Assembly (NCBI GenBank): GCA_038142525.1
Contig: JAYQKE010000003.1
Coordinates: 3,500 to 27,499 of the forward strand
Direction: 5' to 3'
Length of the DNA stretch: 24,000 bases
Source of the DNA: Rickettsiales bacterium
GTDB lineage: Bacteria; Pseudomonadota; Alphaproteobacteria; Rickettsiales; UBA1997
Shown here: positions 1-24,000 of the stretch, in pieces
Numbering within the stretch: the first letter of the stretch is position 1
Layout: each line of letters begins with the position of its first letter
The notes under the pieces: generated by a model
The model's database searches: none
What the model saw: only the letters and a program-made list of their open reading frames with translations
Told to the model about the DNA's origin: nothing
Made by a program: the position numbers and the translations under genes

Positions 1-676
1 ATATCGTCTCTTCTTTGACAAAATTATATCCAAATATTGCTATTATTTCTGAAGAACATCCAGATGAAGAAAATCTAAAATTAAGAGATAAAAAAGAACT
101 TTTTTGATTGATCCAATTGACGGAACTAAAGCTTTTATTAGAAAAAAATCTCAATTTACCATTAATATTGCTTATATTAAAGATAAAAAATTTATTTTAG
201 GATTTATCTATGTGCCAATTTTAGATATTTTATATTATAGTGATTATCAAAATTCTTATAAAATTACTAATTACAATACTCAGCAGAAAGTTAAGATTTT
301 AACCAAAGAAAATAATGATTTAGATGAAGGTATTATTCAAACCTCCTCTCTCGGTAAAAGTGAAAGGGAAATTTTAGCTAAAGAATTTCAAGATATTAAA
401 ATTAAGGATAATATTTATATGACTAGCTCCTATAAATTTTGTTTAATTGCCGAAGGAGTTGCTGATTTTTACCCTAGAAGAGGAGGAATGAAAATTTGGG
501 ATGTAGCTGCTGCTTTTGGAATTTTAAAATTCTTAGATTATAAATTTTTAGATTTAGAGGGTAATGAAATTACTTTTGATGATATGATTAAGGATCTTTC
601 TCTTTCTGATTTTAATTTATTTCGTTCACAAAAGGTGTTGAATTATTTTGATTTTTCTTCAAAATATTTGTTATAG
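1..676 (+). pseudogene. cysQ: 3'(2'),5'-bisphosphate nucleotidase CysQ (inositol monophosphatase family); 5' end lies outside the window and the gene is frameshifted
   Basis: ORF 104-676 carries LIDPIDGTKAF, the IMPase metal-binding motif. It also carries SSYKFCLIAEGVADFYPRRGGMKIWDVAAA, which matches E. coli CysQ as I recall it ([30 protein letters not shown]). Upstream, frame 3 reads IVSSLTKLYPNIAIISEEHPDEENLKLRDKKELF and then hits TGA at 105-107. The two frames join across a T6 run at 100-105 (one base short). The stop TAG at 674-676 takes its G from the adjacent repeat element. Confidence 0.6.
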
Positions 677-846
677 GAACCTCTGAAAAACTAAAAATTG
701 GAATTTTTAGATCATTTTTTAGCAGAAATTCTGTTTCTTTTTGGTGCAATATGAACATATTGTGCCATAAAAAACTAAATTTATGCTAAAAAGGATCAAA
801 AAAGATCAATTTTGCTAAATACATATTTTAGTTTTTCAGAAGTTCC
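676..846 (+). mobile_element. Full-length copy (171 bp) of a palindromic MITE-like element with no coding capacity
   Basis: The termini GGAACCTCTGAAAAACTAAAA ... TTTTAGTTTTTCAGAAGTTCC form about 21-nt inverted repeats. There is a central hairpin GGTGCAATATG/CATATTGTGCC at 743-766. The copy differs from 22537-22709 at only about 8-10 positions by eye. It is flanked by a direct TATA/TATA duplication (672-675 and 847-850). Confidence 0.8.
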
Positions 847-958
847 TATAGTAGGCTAAGTTGACTATATATAGGTTTTAACAACCCCTACCCTTTTATA
901 TCATAAGTAATCTTTGGTTACTTTAGTGGAAGTTTTGTGCAAAAAATAAATATAAATT

Positions 959-2796
959 ATGTGTGGAATTATTGGCGTAATATCAAATAAAAATTCGGAA
1001 GATAAAGTTCTAGAAGGTCTAAAAAGAATGGAATATCGTGGTTATGATTCTTCTGGAATTTCGATCATGAGTAATAATATAATCAAAACTCATAAGGAAG
1101 AAGGTAAAATCATTAATTTAGAAAATTCCATTTCTAAAGATAAAAATTTTAAGGGCAATATTGCTATTGGCCATACTAGATGGGCCACTCATGGTGTTGC
1201 CAATCGTGAAAATGCTCATCCACATTTTACTAACAAAGTTAGTGTAGTTCATAATGGTATTATCGAAAATTATCAAGAAATTAAAGATAAATTAATCAAG
1301 GAAGGTTTTACTTTTAAAAGTCAGACTGATACAGAAATTGTTACTAATCTTATTGCTTCATTTTTAGAACAAAATTTTGATAAAAAGACTATTATTTTGA
1401 AAGTTTTATCGATGATTGAAGGTAGTTTTGCTTTGGGAATTATTTTTCATGATGAGGATAATCTTTTAATTGCAGCTAAAAAAGGTTCACCTTTACTTGT
1501 TGGTTTTGGTAAAAATGAGAATTATATTGCCTCAGATTATTTTGCTATTAATGATTATGTACAAAATATTTGCTATTTAGAAGATGGTGATATTGCCTTT
1601 TTAACCAAAGATAAAATTGACATTTTTGATATTAATCAAAATAAAATTACCAGAGAAATTGAAAAAATTGATAAAAATAGTGAAAAAATTAGCAAAAATG
1701 GTTTTGAACATTTTATGCTTAAAGAAATTTATCAGCTGACCAGAAACTATTCAAAAAACTTTAGCTAAATATTTAGATAAAAAAAATCATCAAATTTCCC
1801 TTCCAAAATTTTCTTTTGATCTAAAAAAAATTGAAAAAATTACCATTGTAGCCTGTGGTACTTCCTATTATGCTGGTATGATTGGTAAATATTTAATTGA
1901 ATCTTTAGCAAGAATTAATGTTGAAGTTGATATTGCATCAGAATTTCGTTATCGCAATCCACCACAAAGTAAAAATTCATTAACTATTTTTATTTCACAA
2001 TCAGGTGAAACGGCTGATACTATTCTTTGCTATGAAATATGTTAAATATCTTAATAAAAAATCTTTAGCAATTGTTAATGCTCCAAAAAGTACTATGGCC
2101 CATTTGGCTGATGATGTAATTTTAACCATGGCTGGCGTTGAAATTGGCGTTGCCTCAACTAAGGCCTTTACAGCACAAGTTGCTATTTTAATATTATTTG
2201 CCCTTAATTTAGGACAAAAAAGAGGCTTTTTAAAAGCGGAAAAAATTGATGAATTAATTGCTTCATTAAATCTTATGCCAAATTTAATGCAGCAGATTTT
2301 ATCAAAAGAATATGTTGAAAATGTTAAAAAAATTGCCCACCAAATTAAAGATGCTGAAAATATTTTATATATTGGCCGCGGTATTTCTTATGCCACATCA
2401 ATGGAGGCTGCTTTAAAATTAAAGGAACTTTCTTATATCAACTCTTCGGCCATTGCTGCAGGAGAATTAAAACATGGTACAATCGCTCTAATTGACAAAG
2501 AAACTTATGTTATTGCCATTGCTCCAGAAAATGAATTATTTGATAAAATTTCATCAAATATTGCCGAGATTTCCGCTAGAAATGGTAAGGTTATTCTTAT
2601 CTCCAGTAAGGGTGGAGTAAATAATATTAAAAATATTATTTCAAATTCCTTGCATGTCGCTCAAAATTGTGATATAATAGCCGAATCACTACTTTATGTG
2701 ATACCGGTTCAGCTGATTGCCTATTATGTTGCATTATTTAAAGGAAATGATGTCGATCAGCCGAGAAATTTAGCAAAATCCGTAACTGTCGAATAA
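959..2796 (+). pseudogene. glmS: Glutamine--fructose-6-phosphate aminotransferase GlmS, interrupted by two +1 frameshifts
   Basis: The N-terminus is MCGIIG, with the Cys2 nucleophile. SIS-domain motifs are present ([29 protein letters not shown]), and the C-terminus is the typical DQPRNLAKSVTVE. The frame path is frame 2 (959-1738), then frame 0 (1740-2045, reading [15 protein letters not shown]...[10 protein letters not shown]), then frame 1 (2026-2796). The shifts are at 1739 and at about 2025-2028. The ORF track shows only the outer pieces, 959-1768 and 2005-2796. Confidence 0.85.
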
Positions 2797-2855
2797 TTTT
2801 TAATAAATTACCTAACTGACTTTGCTAATTTAATTTTTTCTTATTTATAAATAAT

Positions 2856-5800
2856 ATGAATTTTTTAAGAAAATTTATTTTAGCTAGCATAATTCTCTGT
2901 GCAAAAAATACATTTGCGGCTAATTTTACTGTTGATGCTGGTGGTAAAACAATGACTCAATATATCTCTGCCGTTGGTGGTGATCCTGATATTGATACTA
3001 TTATCTTTAATAGTGGTGATAATGGTGTTTTAACTATTGATGCTGATAATGCCACTAATACCATTTTATCCATAGAAGCTAATGCTAGTAATAATGGAAT
3101 TATTGATTTTACTACTGCTAGCAGGGTTTTAGCTGTTCAAAATAATATAGCTGATCAGGATCAAAAACTTTCTGAAATTAGGGCTAACACTTCTGATTTT
3201 ACTATTGATGCTTCTAATTTATATGCTAATCAATTAACTATTAATACTGATTCAGCAATAGCAGGTACAGCAATTTTAAATTTTAATGATATTTCGCTTG
3301 GAGCTAATAATTTATCCATTGCAAATACAGTTAATATTTCTGGCGATATAAATGGAACTGGCGATATAAATGGTTCTAATACTAATCTTAGCTTTAATGG
3401 CTCCTCTACTCAAAATATTGCCTCTACTATTGGGGCCGCTTCTAGAATTGGTAATATTGATATTACAGGTTCAAATATTGGAGCAACCACCATTAATTTT
3501 AATAATGATACAACTATCACTAATATTAATTTTAGCAATAATTTTGCTACCACTTTAAATTTGGGTGGAACGAGCAAAACTATAAATCTTTCTGGAGATA
3601 TATCAAATAGTGGCTCTATTGATGCTTTTATTACTAATTCCACTAATGATGGTACTTTATTAATTTCCGGCTCTGCCAATCAAGATATTAATGCTAAAAT
3701 TGGTACTTCGACCAGTTCTAGATTTAATCAGGTCGATATTAATAATACTAATAATCAAATTACTTTTGCTCAAGATAGTTACATTAATAATTTTAATATA
3801 AGTGCTACTTCTAATAATTCTATTATTAGCAATAGTTCTATAATGGATATTTCAACTGCAAATATTGCCGAAGATGTAATATTTTCTGGTTCTGGTACTA
3901 TGAGCATTAATAATTTAAATATTTCATCCAGTAAAGTCTTAACTTTGCAAAAATCTATTAATATTTCTGGTAATATTACGGGTATAAATGATGGTAATTC
4001 GGAAACTATTATAGGTAATGAAGGTAGGGTTAATTTTAATGGTTCATCAGCGCAATCAGTGTCGGATGTAATATTGGGGGCAGTGCTCTTAGCAGTAATA
4101 GGCTTGCTTCTATTACTAACTCAAATGTCAATGATATTACTTTAAATGATAATGTTTATGTCACTGATGTAATTTTAAATTCTAACGGTAATTTTAATAT
4201 TGTATCTGGTAAAATAATTGATATTGAAGGCAATGTTACTAGATCTTCTGGCTCTGGTATTATTAAAGCTAATGTAAATGATGTTGGAACTGTAAAATTG
4301 TCAGGCTCTACTGCCCAAACTATTGATGTTAATATAGGAGAATCTTCTTCTAGAATTAATAATCTCAATATTTCTAATTTAGCTAGTGTTACTTTAAATA
4401 ATAATTCCTATGTTACAAATCTTACTTATAGCGGTAATAATTTAACTATGATGAGTAATAGCATTTTGGATATTAATAGTGGCGGTATGGATTTAACTAA
4501 CAAAAATACTAATTTTAAATTATCTTCAGCTAATAGCTCTTCCAATCCTTTTGGTCAAATTGAGTTAAATTCTGGCAATCTAACATTAAGTAATAGTACA
4601 GTATTTTTTGATTATAATGGTTTTACTGATTCTACCTTAAATTTTAACTATGATGGAGGAACTTACAATCTTATAAATAGCACTGGAACTGCACCAAATT
4701 TAAGTAATCTATCAGTTTCAGATAATTCTTATCTTTTTAATCACTCCCTGATTTTAAATGGCGGCAATATTGAGACAATTATCGTAAAAGATTCCAGTAT
4801 TTTTAGTGAAGGGGAGTTGGGGAAAAGTAATAATAGAATATTAAATAAAGCTCTCGAAACTTCAGATATTGCAGCAGATATCATGTCAATTAGTAGTCAA
4901 AGTGAACTGAAAGAAGCTATGGAATCTATTAGACTCCCTAATAATGCCGCTTTATTAAAATATAATATAGCCATCAATAATGATGTAAATAATATTATAT
5001 CTCAAAGGGTTAGAAATATTACATTATTCCCCAAAAGAAATAGACAAGCCTTTTGGGGCGATGTTTTTCTTTCTAACATAACTCAATCAAAGAATAGAAA
5101 GAAAGGTTATGATGGTTTTACCTCTGGTGGTACAGGTTTTTTAGCAGGTTATGATTATGTTAATGGTGGTAATGTCATTGGCTTTACCGGCTTTTATTTA
5201 GGTTCAGAAATTGCAAATGATAATAAAGGTGATTTTACCTCTATAATTAGTTCATCTGGGGCTTCTATATATAATAAATTTGGATCAAGACTCAGTCGTG
5301 GTTTTTACAATATTAATGTTTTTAATTATATTTCTAATGAATATAGGAATGAAAGAAAAGTTAAATTACCAAATTTAAAGGAAATTATTAAAGCTGAAAT
5401 TTCTGGTAATTCAATGAATGCTAGATCTGAAATTGGTTATCATATTCCTCTTATCAAAAGTTCACTTTTTTCGCCCAAAATAGCTTTAGAATATTTTTCT
5501 GATAGCAGAGATTCTTATGAAGAAAAAGGGTTGGAAAATCTAGCATTTGAAGTAAAAGAAGAAGAATTTGACAGTTTAATTTTTTCGGCAGGTTTTGATA
5601 TTGGCGGTAAATTTTATACTGGTAAAAAAAGCTTACTCTCTCCCATATTAGATATTTCTTGGCGTAAATATATGGGCGATAAGCGAAAGAGGAGCGTAAG
5701 ATGAGTTTTAAAGGAAAAAATCAATATTTTACCATGAAATCTTCTGAATTACCTTCAGATTATCTTAATCTAGCCATTAATGCTGAATATTCTAAGGCAA

Positions 5801-10316: not shown

Positions 10317-10561
10317 TACTCCCGGCAGGATTCGAACCTGCGCACATGGATTAGGGACTGTCCAAAATCTATGTTGAAATACTTTTTTCATTGCTTTTCT
10401 GTTAATTTTTGCCTAAATTCAACGATTTTTTAGCCCAATATGGGTATATTGCACCAAAAAATCATCAAATTTTGTCTAAAAATTACCCAAAAAATCAAAG
10501 GAAAAATATTTCGGACAGTTCCTTTAGGAAACCAATGCTCTATCCCCTGAGCTATGGGAGT
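10317..10561 (-). tRNA. tRNA-Arg(CCU) gene interrupted in the anticodon arm by a 169-nt element (pseudogene or intron-containing gene)
   Basis: The minus strand from 10561 to 10523 reads ACTCCCA TA GCTC AGGGGATA GAGC A TTGGT TTCCTAA A. This gives the acceptor 5' strand, the D-arm, the anticodon stem and the anticodon loop, with anticodon CCT at 10528-10526. The minus strand from 10350 to 10317 reads TCCAT GTGC GCAGG TTCGAAT CCTGC CGGGAGT A. This gives the T-arm with the canonical TTCGAAT loop, an acceptor 3' strand pairing with ACTCCC, and discriminator A. No CCA is encoded. The two halves are separated by 10354-10522. Confidence 0.75.
10354..10522 (-). mobile_element. Diverged copy (169 bp) of the GGAAC palindromic element, inserted in tRNA-Arg(CCU)
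   Basis: Read on the minus strand it starts GGAAC and ends GTCCC. Its 15-nt inverted termini are GGAACTGTCCGAAAT/ATTTTGGACAGTCCC. It shares the block TTTTTGGTGCAATAT...CATATTG.GC with the canonical copies, at the same offset (nt 63) from the GGAAC end. It also shares AATTTTTAGA and is nearly the same total length. The flanks are TAAA (10526-10523) and TAAT (10353-10350), a 3/4-matching A/T-only duplication. Confidence 0.6.
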
Positions 10562-10723
10562 AAAAGACAGCTCCATTACGCTATTACTTTAAGGATATAT
10601 TTCAATAATTCAACTTCAGAAAAACAAATTGTAGCAATTATTATTTTTAAATATGAAATTAAGATATACTATTTTGCAGGAGAAGCTGGTTCTCCATCAA
10701 TCGCAGACGACGGATTACTAACA

Positions 10724-11077
10724 TTAGGTGATGGGAGGTCCCGAAGAATCAGATGGAGGTGGTTCTATGGCTGGAATCTTCTTGCTAGGAGTAATCTCAC
10801 ATTTCAAACCTGATCCTCCCGCTTCAGCATCAAATTTTTCTTGACTTACTATTTGACCAATAGAAAAACTAGCATCTGACAACATCCCACCTATCCATTC
10901 CCCTTCATATTTCTGCTTATCTTCTGAAATATAAGTACCTTGTCCATTTGGCTCTCCATCTTTAAATTGACCTTGATATTGCCTATATCCAAAACCATTA
11001 TTACTATCCCAAGTCATAACACCTTGACCATTTAGCTTTCCATCTTTAAATTGACCTTGATATCTAGTACCATCCAT
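10724..11077 (-). CDS. MORN-repeat protein with a Pro/Ser-rich C-terminal tail
   Basis: The 117-aa ORF has consecutive MORN-like units (YQGQFKDGKLNGQGVMTW, YQGQFKDGEPNGQGTYI, YEGEWIGG). Its tail is IPAIEPPPSDSSGPPIT. There is no signal peptide. An AAGG lies 7 nt upstream of the ATG. Confidence 0.7.
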   Translation of the reverse strand: MDGTRYQGQFKDGKLNGQGVMTWDSNNGFGYRQYQGQFKDGEPNGQGTYISEDKQKYEGEWIGGMLSDASFSIGQIVSQEKFDAEAGGSGLKCEITPSKKIPAIEPPPSDSSGPPIT

Positions 11078-17371: not shown

Positions 17372-17421
17372 GAAACCTCTGAAAAACTAAAAATTGGAAT
17401 TTTTAGTTTTTCAGAGGTTCC
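17372..17421. mobile_element. 50-bp internally deleted mini-copy of the GGAAC palindromic element; likely a bidirectional terminator hairpin
   Basis: GAAACCTCTGAAAAACTAAAAATT-GG-AATTTTTAGTTTTTCAGAGGTTCC consists of the two element termini joined directly. It forms a 24-bp hairpin with one mismatch. It is flanked by a TTAA/TTAA duplication (17368-17371 and 17422-17425). It lies between the convergent stops of phrB (17354) and ppdK (17440). Confidence 0.75.
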
Positions 17422-17439: not shown

Positions 17440-20101
17440 TTAATCTAAATTTGCTTGAGCAGCAGCGATTCTAGCAATAGGAACGCGATAAGGAGAACAA
17501 GAAACATAATCTAAACCAACCTTATGACAAAAATTAACTGATTTTGGATCACCACCATGTTCACCACAAATACCTAATTTAATATTTTTTCTGGTTTTTC
17601 TGCCACCTTCTACAGCTATTTCAATCAATTTACCAACACCTTTTTGATCAAGAACTGCAAAAGGATCTTTTTCAATAATATTTTGAGCTTTATAGTCAGG
17701 TAAGAAATTACCAGCATCATCACGAGAAATACCAAGGGTAGTTTGAGTTAAATCATTAGTTCCAAAACTAAAAAACTCTGCTTCTTTAGCAATCTCATCA
17801 GCAACAATTGCCGCTCTTGGAAGTTCGATCATAGTTCCAACCATATAATTCAAATCACCAGCAAAATTAGCTTTTACCTCTTGGTAAGTATCATTAATGA
17901 TTTTCCTTAAAATCTCTAATTCTTTTGGAATACAAACCAAAGGAACCATGATTTCAATTTTCGGCTCCTTACCTGTTTTCTTTTTGATATTAAAACCAGC
18001 TTCAAAAATCGCCCTAGCCTGCATCTTATAAATTTCTGGATGGGAAATACCAAGCCTACAGCCTCTGTGACCGAGCATTGGATTTTCTTCACTCAATCTA
18101 ATAATTCTAGATTTAATATAATCTTTAGAAACATTAAGAATCTCAGCCATTTTGATAATATCCTTATCTTCATGAGGCAAAAATTCATGCAAAGGTGGAT
18201 CAAGAAGACGAATATTTACTGGTAAACCCTCCATGATTTCAAAGATTTCTTCAAAATCCTTTCTTTGCATTGGAAGTAATTTTTCTAAAGATTCTAACCT
18301 ACCATCCTTTGTTTCAGATAAAATCATTTGACGCACAGCATCAATACGATCCTCATTAAAAAACATATGTTCAGTACGACATAATCCAATACCTTCAGCA
18401 CCAAATTCCCTAGCAATTTTGCAATCTTTTGCGGTTTCGGCATTAGTTCTAATTTTTAATCTTCTAATATCATCAACCCAAGACATTATGGTTCTAAAAT
18501 CATCAGATAATTCAGGATCAATAGTTGGGACAGTACCTAAAATTACATCACCAGTAGAGCCATTAATGGTAATAATTTCTCCCTCCTTTATTTTCGTATT
18601 AGAAATAATAACTTCCTTAGCATCATAATTAATCTCAACTTCAGAAGCGCCACAAACACATGGGGTTCCCATGCCACGCGCAACAACAGCAGCGTGAGAT
18701 GTCATGCCACCTCTAGAAGTTAAAATTGCCTTGGCAACCGCCATACCCTTAATATCCTCTGGGCTAGTTTCAGCTCTAACTAAAATAACATTTCCAGCTT
18801 TTGATTTTTCTTCAGCATCTTTTGATGAAAATACCACAATACCAGAAGCAGCACCAGGCGAAGCTGGCAATGCTTTAGTTAAAATTTTAACCTTAGCCTT
18901 TGAGTCAATTCTCGGATGTAATAATTGATCTAAAGATTCTGGAGAGATTCTTTTAACCGCCTCCTTTTGATTAATTAAACCCTCTTGCACCATATCAACG
19001 GCAATTTTTAAAGCAAAGAGTAACACTTCTTTTACCTGATCTGGTTTGAAGCATCCATAATTTATTATTTTGAACGGTAAATTCAATATCTTGCATGTCA
19101 CGATAATGAAGCTCCAATTTTTGATAGATATTTACTAGATCTTGATAAGCAAAGAGGCATTGACTCCTCCATAGAAGGTAAATCGGATCCAGATTTAATT
19201 CTTGCTAATTTAGTAATATTTTGCGGTGTTCTAATACCAGCAACAACATCTTCACCTTGAGCATTAATTAAATATTCACCGTAAAATTCTTTTGCTCCAG
19301 TTGAAGGATCACGAGTAAAAGCAACACCAGTAGCACAATCTTCACCCATATTACCAAAAACCATTGATTGAATATTAACAGCTGTTCCCCACTCGACAGG
19401 GATATCATGAAGTTCACGATAGGTAATAGCGCGATCATTCATCCAAGAAGCAAAAACCGCTTCAATTGCGCCCCATAATTGTTCTTTAACATTTTGAGGA
19501 AATTCTTTGCCCGTTTCCTGCAAAACCTTTTCTTTAAATAAAGAAATAATTTCTTCTAAATGTTTTTCTGTTAAATCAGTATCTAAAAATATACCATATT
19601 CAGATTTTTTTCATCCATAATTTCTTCAAAATTATAATGATCTACACCTAATACCACATCAGAATACATTTGAATAAAACGACGATAAGAATCTAAAGCA
19701 AATCTTTTATTATCACTTTTTTTAGTAAGACCAATTAATGTCTTATCATTAAGACCAAGATTTAGAACGGTATCCATCATGCCAGGCATAGAAGCCCTGG
19801 CACCAGAACGGACAGAAAATAAAAGGGGATTCTCACTATCACCAAAATTAGCTTGCAATTTTTTTTCAATCTTTGCAATAGATTCACTAATTTGAAACTC
19901 TAATTCTACCGGAAAATTTCTATTATTTTTATAATAAATATCACAAACTTCAGTAGTAATTGTAAATCCTGGAGGAACGGGTAAAGCAAGATTTGACATC
20001 TCAGCCAAATTTGCACCCTTACCACCAAGAAGATTTTTCATCGAAACATCACCTTCCGATTTTCCATCTCCGAAATTATAAACTAATTTATTTTTACTCA
20101 T
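17440..20101 (-). pseudogene. ppdK: Pyruvate, phosphate dikinase PpdK, split into three frames
   Basis: The N-terminal piece (19583-20101) contains [10 protein letters not shown]. The middle piece extends upstream of the ORF-track start (to about 19604) and ends at 19098; it contains [14 protein letters not shown]. The C-terminal piece (17440 to about 19153) contains the phospho-His region GGMTSHAAVVARGMG, plus CRTEHMF and GICGEHGGDP. The shifts are at the coding-strand A7 run (plus-strand T7 at 19605-19611, one base short) and at ATGCCTCTTTGCTTAT (19141-19160, one base extra). Confidence 0.9.
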
Positions 20102-22416: not shown

Positions 22417-22536
22417 AAAATTATAATTTAATTTAAAAGAAAAATCATATATTAACCTTTTAATAAATCAATATTGAATATGAGGCGAGATAAAAAATTA
22501 GGAATTAAAATAATTAATAACTTCTTCATTTCTTAT

Positions 22537-22709
22537 GGAACCTCTGAAAAACTAAAAATTGGAATTTTTAGATCATTTTTTAGCAGAAATTCTGTTTCTT
22601 TTTGGTGCAATATGGACATATTGTGCCATAAAAAAACTAAATGTTATGCTAAAAAAGGGTCAAAAAGATCAATTTTGCTAAATACATATTTTAGTTTTTC
22701 AGAGGTTCC
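22537..22709 (+). mobile_element. Full-length copy (173 bp) of the palindromic MITE-like element
   Basis: The termini GGAACCTCTGAAAAACTAAAA ... TTTTAGTTTTTCAGAGGTTCC form perfect 21-nt inverted repeats. The central hairpin is at 22604-22627. A TTAT/TTAT duplication flanks the copy (22533-22536 and 22710-22713). The right end overlaps the last codons of rarA. Confidence 0.85.
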
Positions 22710-24000
22710 TTATCTCTCAATCTTTGCCAATAATCCACCCTCTTTGCTATCTCCCTTTCAAAACCCCTTTCATTTGGTTCATAATATTTAGGACGCGCCC
22801 CTTTATCTTGTAATATTTCTTCAGGAAAATATTCCTGACCAGAAAAACAATTTTTTGTGTCATGATCATAAATATATCCTTCCTTATAACCCATATCCTG
22901 CATCATTTTAGTAGGAGCATTGAGAATATATTTTGGTGGAGATTGATTATTATATTTTTTAGCATCATTTCTAGCCTCCTTATAGGCCTTGTAGCAGGAA
23001 TTTGATTTTGGTGCAGTAGCGCAATAAATCACTGCATTTGCTATAACATAATCACCTTCTTTTTTACCCAAAAAATGATATGAATCTTTGGCGACCAAAG
23101 CCTGAATCAAAGCATTAGGATCAGCCATAGCAATATCTTCACTGGCAAATCTAACAATTCTTCTAAGAATATAATTTGGATCTTCTCCAGCTTCTAACAT
23201 TCTAGCTAAATAATAAAGAGAAGCATCGACATCTGACCCTCTCATTGCCTTATGAAGAGCACTGATCAAACCATAATGACTATCACTTTTTTTGTCATAA
23301 ATTGCCATTTTCTTTTGCAAAATATCTGACAATTCTTTTAGATCTATTAATTTATTTGAATCAAATAAAAATAATTCTTCACATAAATTTAAAAGATATC
23401 TGGCATCTTTAGCTGCAATTTCTATTAATTTTTTCCTAGAATCTTGAGTTAATGGTAATTTTTTGCCATAATATTCTTCAGCTCTTTTTATTACCAATTC
23501 TAAATCAAAATCTGATAAAGGCTTTAATTCCACAACTCGACATCTAGATAAGAGAGCAGAATTTAATTCAAAAGAGGGATTTTCGGTTGTAGCGCCAATT
23601 AAAATAATTGTGCCATCTTCAATATAAGGTAAAAATAAATCCTGCTGGGATTTATTAAAGCGATGAATTTCATCAATGATTAAAATTGTATTTACAGACT
23701 GATCTTCTCTTCTTTTTATAGCTTCATTAAAAACTTTTCTAACTTCTGACGCTGTGCTATTAGTTGCCGATAAAATTTGAGAGTGATAATTTGGTAATTT
23801 AGCTAAAATTTTAGCAATAGAGGTTTTGCCACAACCAGCCCTGCCCCATAATATTAATGAAGGTATTTTTTGCGATTTAATTATTCTGGTTAAAATGCCA
23901 TTTTGGCCTAAAAGATGATTTTGACCAATAATTTCATCAATTGATTTTGGTCTTAAAATATCAGCAAGAGGCTGATAAATTTGAGTTTGATTATTTTGTA
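22691..24000 (-). CDS. rarA: Replication-associated recombination protein A (RarA/MgsA AAA+ ATPase); N-terminus lies beyond the window edge
   Basis: The frame stays open from the GTG listed at 23533 up to position 24000. My hand translation gives ...LADILRPKSIDEIIGQNHLLGQNGILTRIIKSQKIPSLILWGRAGCGKTSIAKILA...ILIIDEIHRFNKSQQDLFLPYIEDGTIILIGATTENPSFELNSALLSRCRVVELKPL. This covers Walker A, Walker B and sensor regions. The C-terminal MgsA domain contains HYGLISALHKAMRGSDVDASLYYLARML and PPKYILNAPTKMMQDMGY. Confidence 0.9.
   Translation of the reverse strand, partial: QNNQTQIYQPLADILRPKSIDEIIGQNHLLGQNGILTRIIKSQKIPSLILWGRAGCGKTSIAKILAKLPNYHSQILSATNSTASEVRKVFNEAIKRREDQSVNTILIIDEIHRFNKSQQDLFLPYIEDGTIILIGATTENPSFELNSALLSRCRVVELKPLSDFDLELVIKRAEEYYGKKLPLTQDSRKKLIEIAAKDARYLLNLCEELFLFDSNKLIDLKELSDILQKKMAIYDKKSDSHYGLISALHKAMRGSDVDASLYYLARMLEAGEDPNYILRRIVRFASEDIAMADPNALIQALVAKDSYHFLGKKEGDYVIANAVIYCATAPKSNSCYKAYKEARNDAKKYNNQSPPKYILNAPTKMMQDMGYKEGYIYDHDTKNCFSGQEYFPEEILQDKGARPKYYEPNERGFEREIAKRVDYWQRLRDKEPLKN

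Follow-up and report, generated by a model that had tools for sequence, protein, structure and literature searches.

Palindromic repeats of a Rickettsiales bacterium that share their termini with an IS5-family insertion sequence

The locus and its four repeat copies

The DNA considered here is a 24,000-nucleotide stretch of contig JAYQKE010000003.1 from a Rickettsiales bacterium, and we refer to this whole stretch as the window. It has a G+C content of 25-36%, and its genes include those for PriA, an SbmA/BacA-like transporter, IspA, MnmG, a photolyase, PPDK, FabH, PlsX, an MgsA/RarA-like protein, GlmS and an autotransporter. Among these genes lie four copies of a palindromic repeat, namely two full copies, one mini copy of 50 bp and one divergent minus-strand copy inside a tRNA gene. 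We consider it highly likely that these repeats are non-coding MITEs (transposable elements of miniature size with inverted repeats) moved by the transposase of an IS5-family insertion sequence (IS) that resides in the same population. The copies, their target-site duplications (TSDs) and the tRNA gene are as follows.

676-846, plus strand: full copy A, 171 bp; TSD TATA at 672-675 and 847-850
22537-22709, plus strand: full copy B, 173 bp; TSD TTAT at 22533-22536 and 22710-22713
17372-17421, plus strand: mini copy, 50 bp; two termini with an 8-nt centre between them; TSD TTAA on both sides
10354-10522, minus strand: divergent copy (subfamily B), 169 nt, with ends GGAACTGTCC...GGACAGTCCC; TSD, in the minus-strand reading, TAAA at 10523-10526 and TAAT at 10350-10353
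10317-10561, minus strand: tRNA-Arg(CCT) gene split by the subfamily-B copy; 5' part 10561-10523, 3' part 10349-10317

Copies A and B are 99% identical over their first 99 nt, and the rest differs by a few substitutions and small indels. The 21-nt terminus GGAACCTCTGAAAAACTAAAA occurs with 0-1 mismatch in the two full copies and the mini copy; at up to 3 mismatches it has six matches in the window, which are both ends of these three copies, against 0.00 expected from 100 dinucleotide-preserving shuffles of the window. Both full copies also contain an internal hairpin, CTAAAAATT-GG-AATTTTTAG, and a central hairpin, GGTGCAATAT...ATATTGTGCC. The subfamily-B copy is about 65% identical to the others, with homology through the middle of the element in alignments and by nhmmer. 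The mini copy looks like what a deletion between the TTTTAG repeats of a full element would leave. Copy A is flanked by the 4-mers TATA/TATA, copy B by TTAT/TTAT, the mini copy by TTAA/TTAA and the copy in the tRNA gene by TAAA/TAAT. An earlier note on this DNA had described four copies in 24 kb, two of them full and nearly identical, with inverted repeats of 21 nt, a sub-hairpin, a central hairpin and A/T-only 4-bp flanks, and had found neither an open reading frame (ORF) of their own nor a transposase in the window; on each of these points our analysis agrees with it.

The MITE copies encode nothing. Overlapping them in the window are only the ends of flanking ORFs and one ORF of 105 amino acids that runs through copy B. 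This ORF (22474-22791, plus strand) and another of 134 amino acids that traverses the tRNA copy (10409-10813, plus strand) have no independent support and are likely to be artefacts made by the repeats. A tblastn search of the window with the IS5 transposase gave no match, and a Pfam scan of the window ORFs returned housekeeping, transporter and autotransporter domains or no match.

Insertions in the window are found at gene ends, in intergenic DNA and in one tRNA gene. The mini copy lies between the convergent photolyase and PPDK genes. Copy A lies just downstream of an inositol-monophosphatase-like gene and upstream of glmS, and starts 14 nt past the stop codon of the former as found in the metagenome contig L094. 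That contig, which is 99.7% identical to window positions 1-4201, has the same insertion at its positions 4251-4420 and an extra full copy some 210-380 bp left of where the window begins. Copy B was inserted two codons ahead of the stop codon of the MgsA/RarA-like gene (ORF 22691-23533, minus strand), which now terminates within the right terminus of the repeat. As we read the sequence, the C-terminus ...DKK* has become ...DKEPLKN*, such that the last codon was replaced and copy B supplied the new stop; the MITE terminus has stop codons in two of its three frames.

The wider family and its probable partner insertion sequence

Our catalogue of insertions comprises the window, loci from metagenome-assembled genomes (MAGs) and the metagenome stretches, 66 in number, that were matched by a scan with the terminus. 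It holds 52 unique insertions with both ends, of 47-303 bp, and about 30 with one end, and the same terminus was found in all catalogued copies. The sizes fall into classes of 47-50 bp (11 sites), 62-65, 74-77, 94-96, 141-142, 167-173 (21 sites) and 277 bp, while the single case of 303 bp is a tandem partial duplication.

A perfect 4-bp TSD flanks 38 of the 52 two-ended insertions, and 8 more have a TSD with a single mismatch. The perfect TSDs are TTAA (15), TATA (9), TAAA (6), TTTA (4) and, once each, GATA, GCAA, ATTA and TTAT. Of these 38, 14 are non-palindromic and must therefore be genuine duplications, since an inverted repeat could not extend into them. The palindromic TATA and TTAA could by themselves be read as part of the inverted repeat, and this reading is ruled out by the direct repeats TTAT, TAAA, TTTA, GATA, GCAA and ATTA. 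Other schemes for the ends fared no better: a 3-bp TSD with a terminus longer by 1 nt fails at copy A, a TA-target model of the IS630/mariner kind is contradicted by flanks that do not end in TA, and an IS200/IS605 or REP/RAYT-like model by matching 4-mers that differ from site to site. The earlier note had proposed transposition into AT tetranucleotides and had advised a search for further copies with reproduced TSDs; the proposal is upheld by these 38 insertions and by the empty tRNA-Arg site described below. The 47-50-bp minis consist of the termini only, yet they occupy 11 different sites, 8 of them with a perfect TSD, and the two termini alone thus appear to be enough for movement.

The family is also present in two MAGs of the genome databases, one named 'uncultured Rickettsiales bacterium' and one titled 'Rickettsia typhi', a title that is probably a loose label. 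Whole elements from these MAGs match the window copies at 78-80% identity, whereas the glmS DNA is only 65.6% identical, and the insertion positions differ among the genomes. Recent spread is suggested by the full-length copies, whose identity between different sites is 94-100%. No polymorphic empty sites were seen among the fetched loci, a weak result given that these loci were chosen for carrying the element, and no MITE copies were found in about 90 kb from contigs of related species (L038, L040 and L041). The contigs of close relatives come from marine metagenomes and carry ankyrin-repeat genes and several IS families. On the strength of these genes and of the two MAG labels, we describe the host as Rickettsiales-like.

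Several loci of the scan have peculiarities of their own. In the 'uncultured Rickettsiales' MAG, two MITE copies (L007, near 1252, and L024, near 254) are each broken at one and the same internal TTA by another transposon, which uses the MITE as its target and has the termini TACCAATTCCCA.../...TGGGAATTGGTA. At 3925-4112 of L015, a 133-bp tandem duplication covers the left flank of a MITE together with its first 22 nt (cttaatcctaaaGGAACCTCTGAA...). Matches in FCPU426 candidate-division MAGs, which have 44-57% G+C and belong to a distant phylum, might have been put down to chance, and they proved to be a separate element with related termini: ten copies of an unrelated repeat of about 150 nt that starts GAAACCTCTGAAAAACTAAAA and in most cases ends ...TTTTTCAGAGGTTAC, with the terminus motif as in the MITE (L001, L014, L019, L022, L026, L029 and L033-L036). 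In all probability these repeats are MITEs that belong to a related element of the IS5 clade.

Another type of end, GGAACCTCTGAAAAACCAATTATC..., recurs among the one-ended hits at many sites and contig ends, and in L081 and L084 an IS5-type transposase gene lies about 190 bp after it. The complete IS occupies positions 3-1354 of L110. It is 1352 bp long and has one ORF of 320 amino acids; its left end is GGAACCTCTGAAAAACCAATTATC and its right end GGAACCTCTGATTTTCCTATTTAA. Its start, GGAACCTCTGAAAAAC, and the MITE terminus are the same over the first 16 nt. The match to the IS left end is thus 16/16 nt, with about 30/38 over the first 37 nt, and the match to the right end is 11/11 nt, 11 nt being also the length of the perfect terminal inverted repeat (TIR) of the IS. 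This is the kind of element, with GGAACC... termini, for which the earlier note had recommended a search. Its transposase, P0127 (320 amino acids), represents a cluster of 88 members and was found on contigs exactly one IS long; against a cut-off of 140 it scores 307.5 bits on the NCBIfam model NF033581 'IS5 family transposase', and its Pfam domains are DUF772 and DDE_Tnp_1. IS ends and MITE copies occur on the same contigs, for example L046, L081, L084, L099 and L102. The IS also breaks assemblies, in that many contigs stop about 120 bp inside it, as is expected of a high-copy repeat.

A first candidate for the partner (L038 17962-19100, protein P0121) was rejected, being frameshifted near its N-terminus, sharing only 11 nt at the right end and lacking a recognisable left end; of this L038 variant, seen also in L040 and L041, only the right end GGAACCTCTGATTTACC... 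can be recognised. Copies of the accepted IS are themselves nested in places and may have been rearranged. The copies in L115 and L117 (about 2308-3659) have the same right flank and different left flanks, with no TSD in either, owing either to rearrangement by the IS or to chimeric assembly of the metagenome across the repeat. The copy that is intact in L102 (615-1966) is interrupted in L081 (217-2300) at CTAA/TTAG by a second IS copy, which is in turn interrupted by an IS630-like element, a nested insertion polymorphism between samples.

Over its whole length the MITE folds as one long imperfect hairpin. As DNA it folds at -43 kcal/mol (z = -9.7) and as RNA at -64 kcal/mol (z = -10.3 for the plus strand and -8.9 for the minus strand), and none of 200 shuffles folds as well. 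The IS makes hairpins of its own: one foldback of 277 bp joins about 185 nt of the left end to the first 100 nt or so of that end in inverted orientation, another of 88 bp consists of two inverted right ends, and both fold as near-perfect hairpins. Given these foldbacks, and given that both arms of the 170-bp family are left-end-like, the family is most simply seen as a diverged foldback of an IS end, of which the whole-length palindrome would be the legacy. The family thus offers a worked example of one IS end folding back into a palindromic MITE and a plausible route to palindromes like the Rickettsia palindromic elements (RPEs), whose origin is not known to have been explained.

The repeats are short and non-coding, have TIRs and a TSD of constant length, lie at dispersed sites and share their termini with an IS, which are the defining features of a MITE, an element of about 50-1000 bp. 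In the mechanism that we propose, a DDE transposase would bind and cleave the termini GGAACCTCTGAAAAAC... and would be supplied by the 1352-bp IS5-family IS from elsewhere in the same population. Acting in trans, the enzyme would excise or copy the MITE and insert it at T-W-W-A-like tetranucleotides by a 4-bp staggered cut, whose repair would yield the 4-bp duplication. The hairpin MITE itself would begin as a foldback of one IS end. The family shows that DNA transposition is, or was until recently, at work in a marine alphaproteobacterium that is reduced and looks host-associated.

Related elements and competing readings

Several observations weigh against this account. The case for mobilisation by this particular transposase is built on matching termini and co-occurrence, with indirect support for movement in trans from the 94-100% identity of copies at different sites, and the sole contig that overlaps the window, L094, has MITEs only, such that no IS copy lies on any overlapping contig. 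Alignment between the MITE and the present IS stops after the first 37 nt or so, and the MITE terminus has only 11 nt in common with the IS right end; the direct parent may have been an older or a different IS variant. In its length, its one ORF and its 11-nt TIR the IS fits an IS5-family element of about 1.2-1.4 kb, while its TSDs are less regular: five full IS copies could be seen with both flanks, and of these one has a perfect 4-bp TSD (TATG, L116) and one a TSD with a single mismatch (L102), while the remaining copies have unrelated flanks, which suggests IS-mediated rearrangement or recombinants, or may reflect chimeric metagenome joins. The copy in the tRNA gene belongs to a subfamily whose outer termini (GGAACTGTCC) are different. 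Finally, compensatory double changes were found in 18 of the 66 hairpin pairs in an alignment of six copies from four lineages, and these could indicate selection on the hairpin.

The earlier note had regarded the family as apparently undescribed, and this appears to hold for the sequence and less so for the type. At the gathering threshold Rfam gave no match, and at E <= 1 only a meaningless 18-bit miRNA match; blastn in its 'distant' mode found no match among the plasmids of PLSDB, and a full-text literature search for the terminus returned unrelated papers only, none of them on bacterial transposons. As judged by Rfam, PLSDB and the full-text literature, the family is therefore new. The kind of element, however, is well known, and the present understanding of MITEs is unchanged by it. 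Within the Rickettsiaceae, IS5-family MITEs are represented by mISOt1 of Orientia tsutsugamushi with its ISOt1 (PMC2575882), and elsewhere by the Neisseria ATR with ISNme1 and the Porphyromonas BrickBuilt elements with ISPg1/ISPg9 (PMC4596501). The present repeats resemble such MITEs in being short, non-coding and multi-copy, in having short TSDs and in carrying TIRs that match a co-resident IS5-family IS, and mobilisation in trans is assumed in both cases. The ISNme1 terminus GAGACCTTTGCAAAA (PMC4596501) and the corresponding GGAACCTCTGAAAAA of the present family are alike at 11 of 15 positions. Unlike those elements, the repeats described here have a different sequence, a near-complete hairpin over the whole length with left-end-like arms, a graded series of deletions down to 47-50 bp, and an identical 21-nt terminus in at least three diverged Rickettsiales-like genomes.

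The partner IS can be compared in the same way with IS5 of Escherichia coli. The partner transposase lies above the NF033581 cut-off and combines DUF772 with DDE_Tnp_1, and it can presumably be aligned along its length with the IS5 transposase. IS5 makes 4-bp duplications at YTAR-like sites and its termini begin GGAAGGTGCGAA; the present termini begin GGAACCTCTGAA and the TSD is likewise of 4 bp. Unlike that of IS5, the target spectrum is broader and more A/T-rich, with TATA, TAAA and TTTA besides TTAA and few CTAA/TTAG, and the perfect inverted repeat is only 11 nt long. The Correia elements of Neisseria and the enterobacterial ERIC sequences are also small, dispersed and hairpin-forming, have TA-rich targets and may affect neighbouring transcripts. 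The present family is like them in size, dispersal, hairpins and TA-rich targets. We know of no identified resident transposase for Correia elements or ERIC, whereas a candidate autonomous element was found for the family described here.

A more ambitious version of the transposition account would hold that an IS5-clade transposon systematically turns its own ends into hairpin foldback MITEs, that these are kept by selection as RNA or DNA signals, that the IS/MITE pair spreads horizontally among diverged intracellular Rickettsiales lineages and, in its strongest form, that tRNA-Arg(CCU) is still matured. The 18 compensated pairs among 66, and element identities of 78-80% against about 65%, would then arise because of selection. 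A cognate terminus in the unrelated candidate division FCPU426 would fit the horizontal movement. We regard this combination as very unlikely.

A rival explanation is that the repeats are selfish palindromes of the RPE type, which spread independently of any transposase and resemble an IS end only incidentally. The earlier note had pointed to a resemblance to RPEs, and in shape and habit it is real: like RPE-1 to RPE-8 and the Wolbachia palindromic elements, the present repeats are palindromes of 100-170 bp, abundant in Rickettsiales and situated at or in genes. The hairpin extends over the whole length of 100-170 bp, the copies are dense and adjoin genes in a Rickettsiales-like genome, the interior of the MITE has no alignment to the IS past about 37 nt, and insertion into an RNA gene is likewise known for RPEs, one of which lies in the gene for the tmRNA of R. 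bellii (PMC1458961). The resemblance does not extend to the TIRs, the TSDs and the presence of a cognate IS. Descriptions of RPEs (PMC3767692, PMC1458961) do not mention a cognate transposase or a regular TSD, and by these descriptions the present family is set apart by its TIRs, its 4-bp TSDs and its matching IS. Regular duplications, perfect in 38 of 52 insertions, the 16-nt identity of the terminus to an IS5-family left end, the termini-only minis at many sites and the foldback derivatives made by the IS itself are all difficult to accommodate under transposase-independent spread. The motif ATGAC reported for RPE-4/6/7 (PMC3767692) is absent, since copies A and B contain neither ATGAC nor GTCAT. 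Moreover, RPEs are often translated in frame inside ORFs (PMC3767692, PMC1458961), whereas the window copies lie outside ORFs or at their extreme 3' end and none is an in-frame insertion within a protein-coding gene. Finally, a scan of GTDB species representatives showed the exact terminus to be absent from cultured, named Rickettsia genomes, and its only 'Rickettsia'-labelled matches were in the one MAG titled Rickettsia typhi. An RPE-type origin is therefore very improbable in our view.

We judge it just as improbable that the repeat works primarily as a structured signal at the RNA or DNA level (for example as terminator, insulator or small RNA) whose hairpin is selected and whose mobility is secondary. 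Such a role would be in keeping with fold z-scores near -10 on both strands, with the compensatory changes in 18 of 66 pairs, with copies at gene 3' ends and between convergent genes, and with the 78-80% identity of elements between genomes whose glmS DNA is 65.6% identical. However, the covariation is equally explained if diverged IS ends folded back independently of each other, and one arm may also have been copied onto the other, while high identity between genomes also fits horizontal spread of the IS and MITE. The sizes range from 47 to 303 bp, deletion derivatives spread too, and insertion sites differ among genomes, all of which counts against such a role. In addition, the hairpin is not followed by a T-run, Rfam holds no match, and one copy destroys a tRNA gene.

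The split tRNA-Arg(CCT) gene and other interrupted genes

The subfamily-B copy allows a comparison between an occupied and an empty site. With default settings ARAGORN called no tRNA in the window, and with introns allowed it called one, with an insert of 171 nt, which it modelled as Gly(CCC) with odd geometry. The identity Arg(CCT) was established by comparison with a relative. Homologues of the SbmA-like protein (86% identical) led to contigs of relatives with the same order of glyoxalase, SbmA, IspA and PriA genes, and three of these (L038, L039 and L040) have an intact syntenic tRNA-Arg(CCT) that reads ...TTGGT TTCCTAA ACCAT... at the site. On the tRNA strand the window has ...TTTCC TAAA, then the element (GGAAC...GTCCC), then TAAT CCATG... 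in its place. When the element (169 nt) is excised in silico together with one of its flanking 4-mers, ARAGORN calls tRNA-Arg(CCT), and the restored tRNA differs from that of the relative (L038 9552-9625) at 3 of 72 positions, G1A, G7A and C72T. That excision together with one TAAA restores the tRNA argues for transposition into a TAAA of the anticodon loop and not for an intron. On the sequence evidence, the tRNA-Arg copy is a transposition footprint in the anticodon loop.

G1A and C72T together retain the pair 1-72, which is now A-U, and G7A sets A against C as a mismatch. No other change is seen in the exons, whose G+C is about 53% in a genome of 29% G+C; such well-kept exons would fit either a recent insertion or some remaining constraint. 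We nonetheless believe that the split tRNA-Arg(CCT) is most likely inactive, in which case tRNA-Arg(CCU) was lost through insertion of a MITE into the anticodon loop.

The smallest known group I introns are of about 200 nt, and the 169-nt insert is smaller. That the insert is an intron-like sequence removed from the transcript, which would leave a functional tRNA-Arg(CCU), is scarcely credible: although it lies in the anticodon loop of a tRNA that ARAGORN can model with an intron, appears on reading the sequence to make an 11-bp terminal helix, and separates halves that differ at only 3 of 72 positions with G1-C72 replaced by the pair A1-U72, it is homologous to a dispersed MITE family, its TAAA/TAAT flanks are duplicated such that removing the insert alone leaves the loop 4 nt too long, the gene is uninterrupted in relatives, Rfam has no match at the gathering threshold in a scan of the whole window, no bulge-helix-bulge could be drawn by hand at the junctions, and the transitions at positions 1 and 72 are both AT-biased, alongside a G7A that makes a mismatch. 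Given the uninterrupted tRNA-Arg(CCT) at the syntenic site of relatives and the duplicated TAAA, we rejected an intron for this fourth copy.

Members of subfamily B also occur in L055 and L059. In the latter (2366-2545), a subfamily-B element has received a 74-bp insertion from the main subfamily, with a TTAA duplication, and subfamily B is thus the older of the two at that site.

These insertions have practical consequences for annotation. The repeats hide the tRNA from default ARAGORN and create false ORF ends, such as those of 22474-22791, and both ORF and tRNA calls would be mended once consensus sequences of this family and of its IS are to hand.

Other genes of the window are interrupted in a different manner. 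The glmS, autotransporter and PPDK genes (959-2796, 2856-5704 and 17440-20101) are each split into two or three ORFs. In L094 (3575-7774), glmS is one intact frame of 612 amino acids and the autotransporter frame continues past the break seen in the window to the end of the contig. Small indels separate the window from L094 at 99, 798, 1737-1739, 2024-2027 and 4075, and the ORFs are broken either because the genes are pseudogenes at the level of the strain or because the assembly behind the window has indel errors. The passenger region of the autotransporter (within 2856-5704) contains diverged internal repeats of 38-50 nt, with start-to-start spacings of 168-602 nt, which fall into the families D2, D5 and D13.

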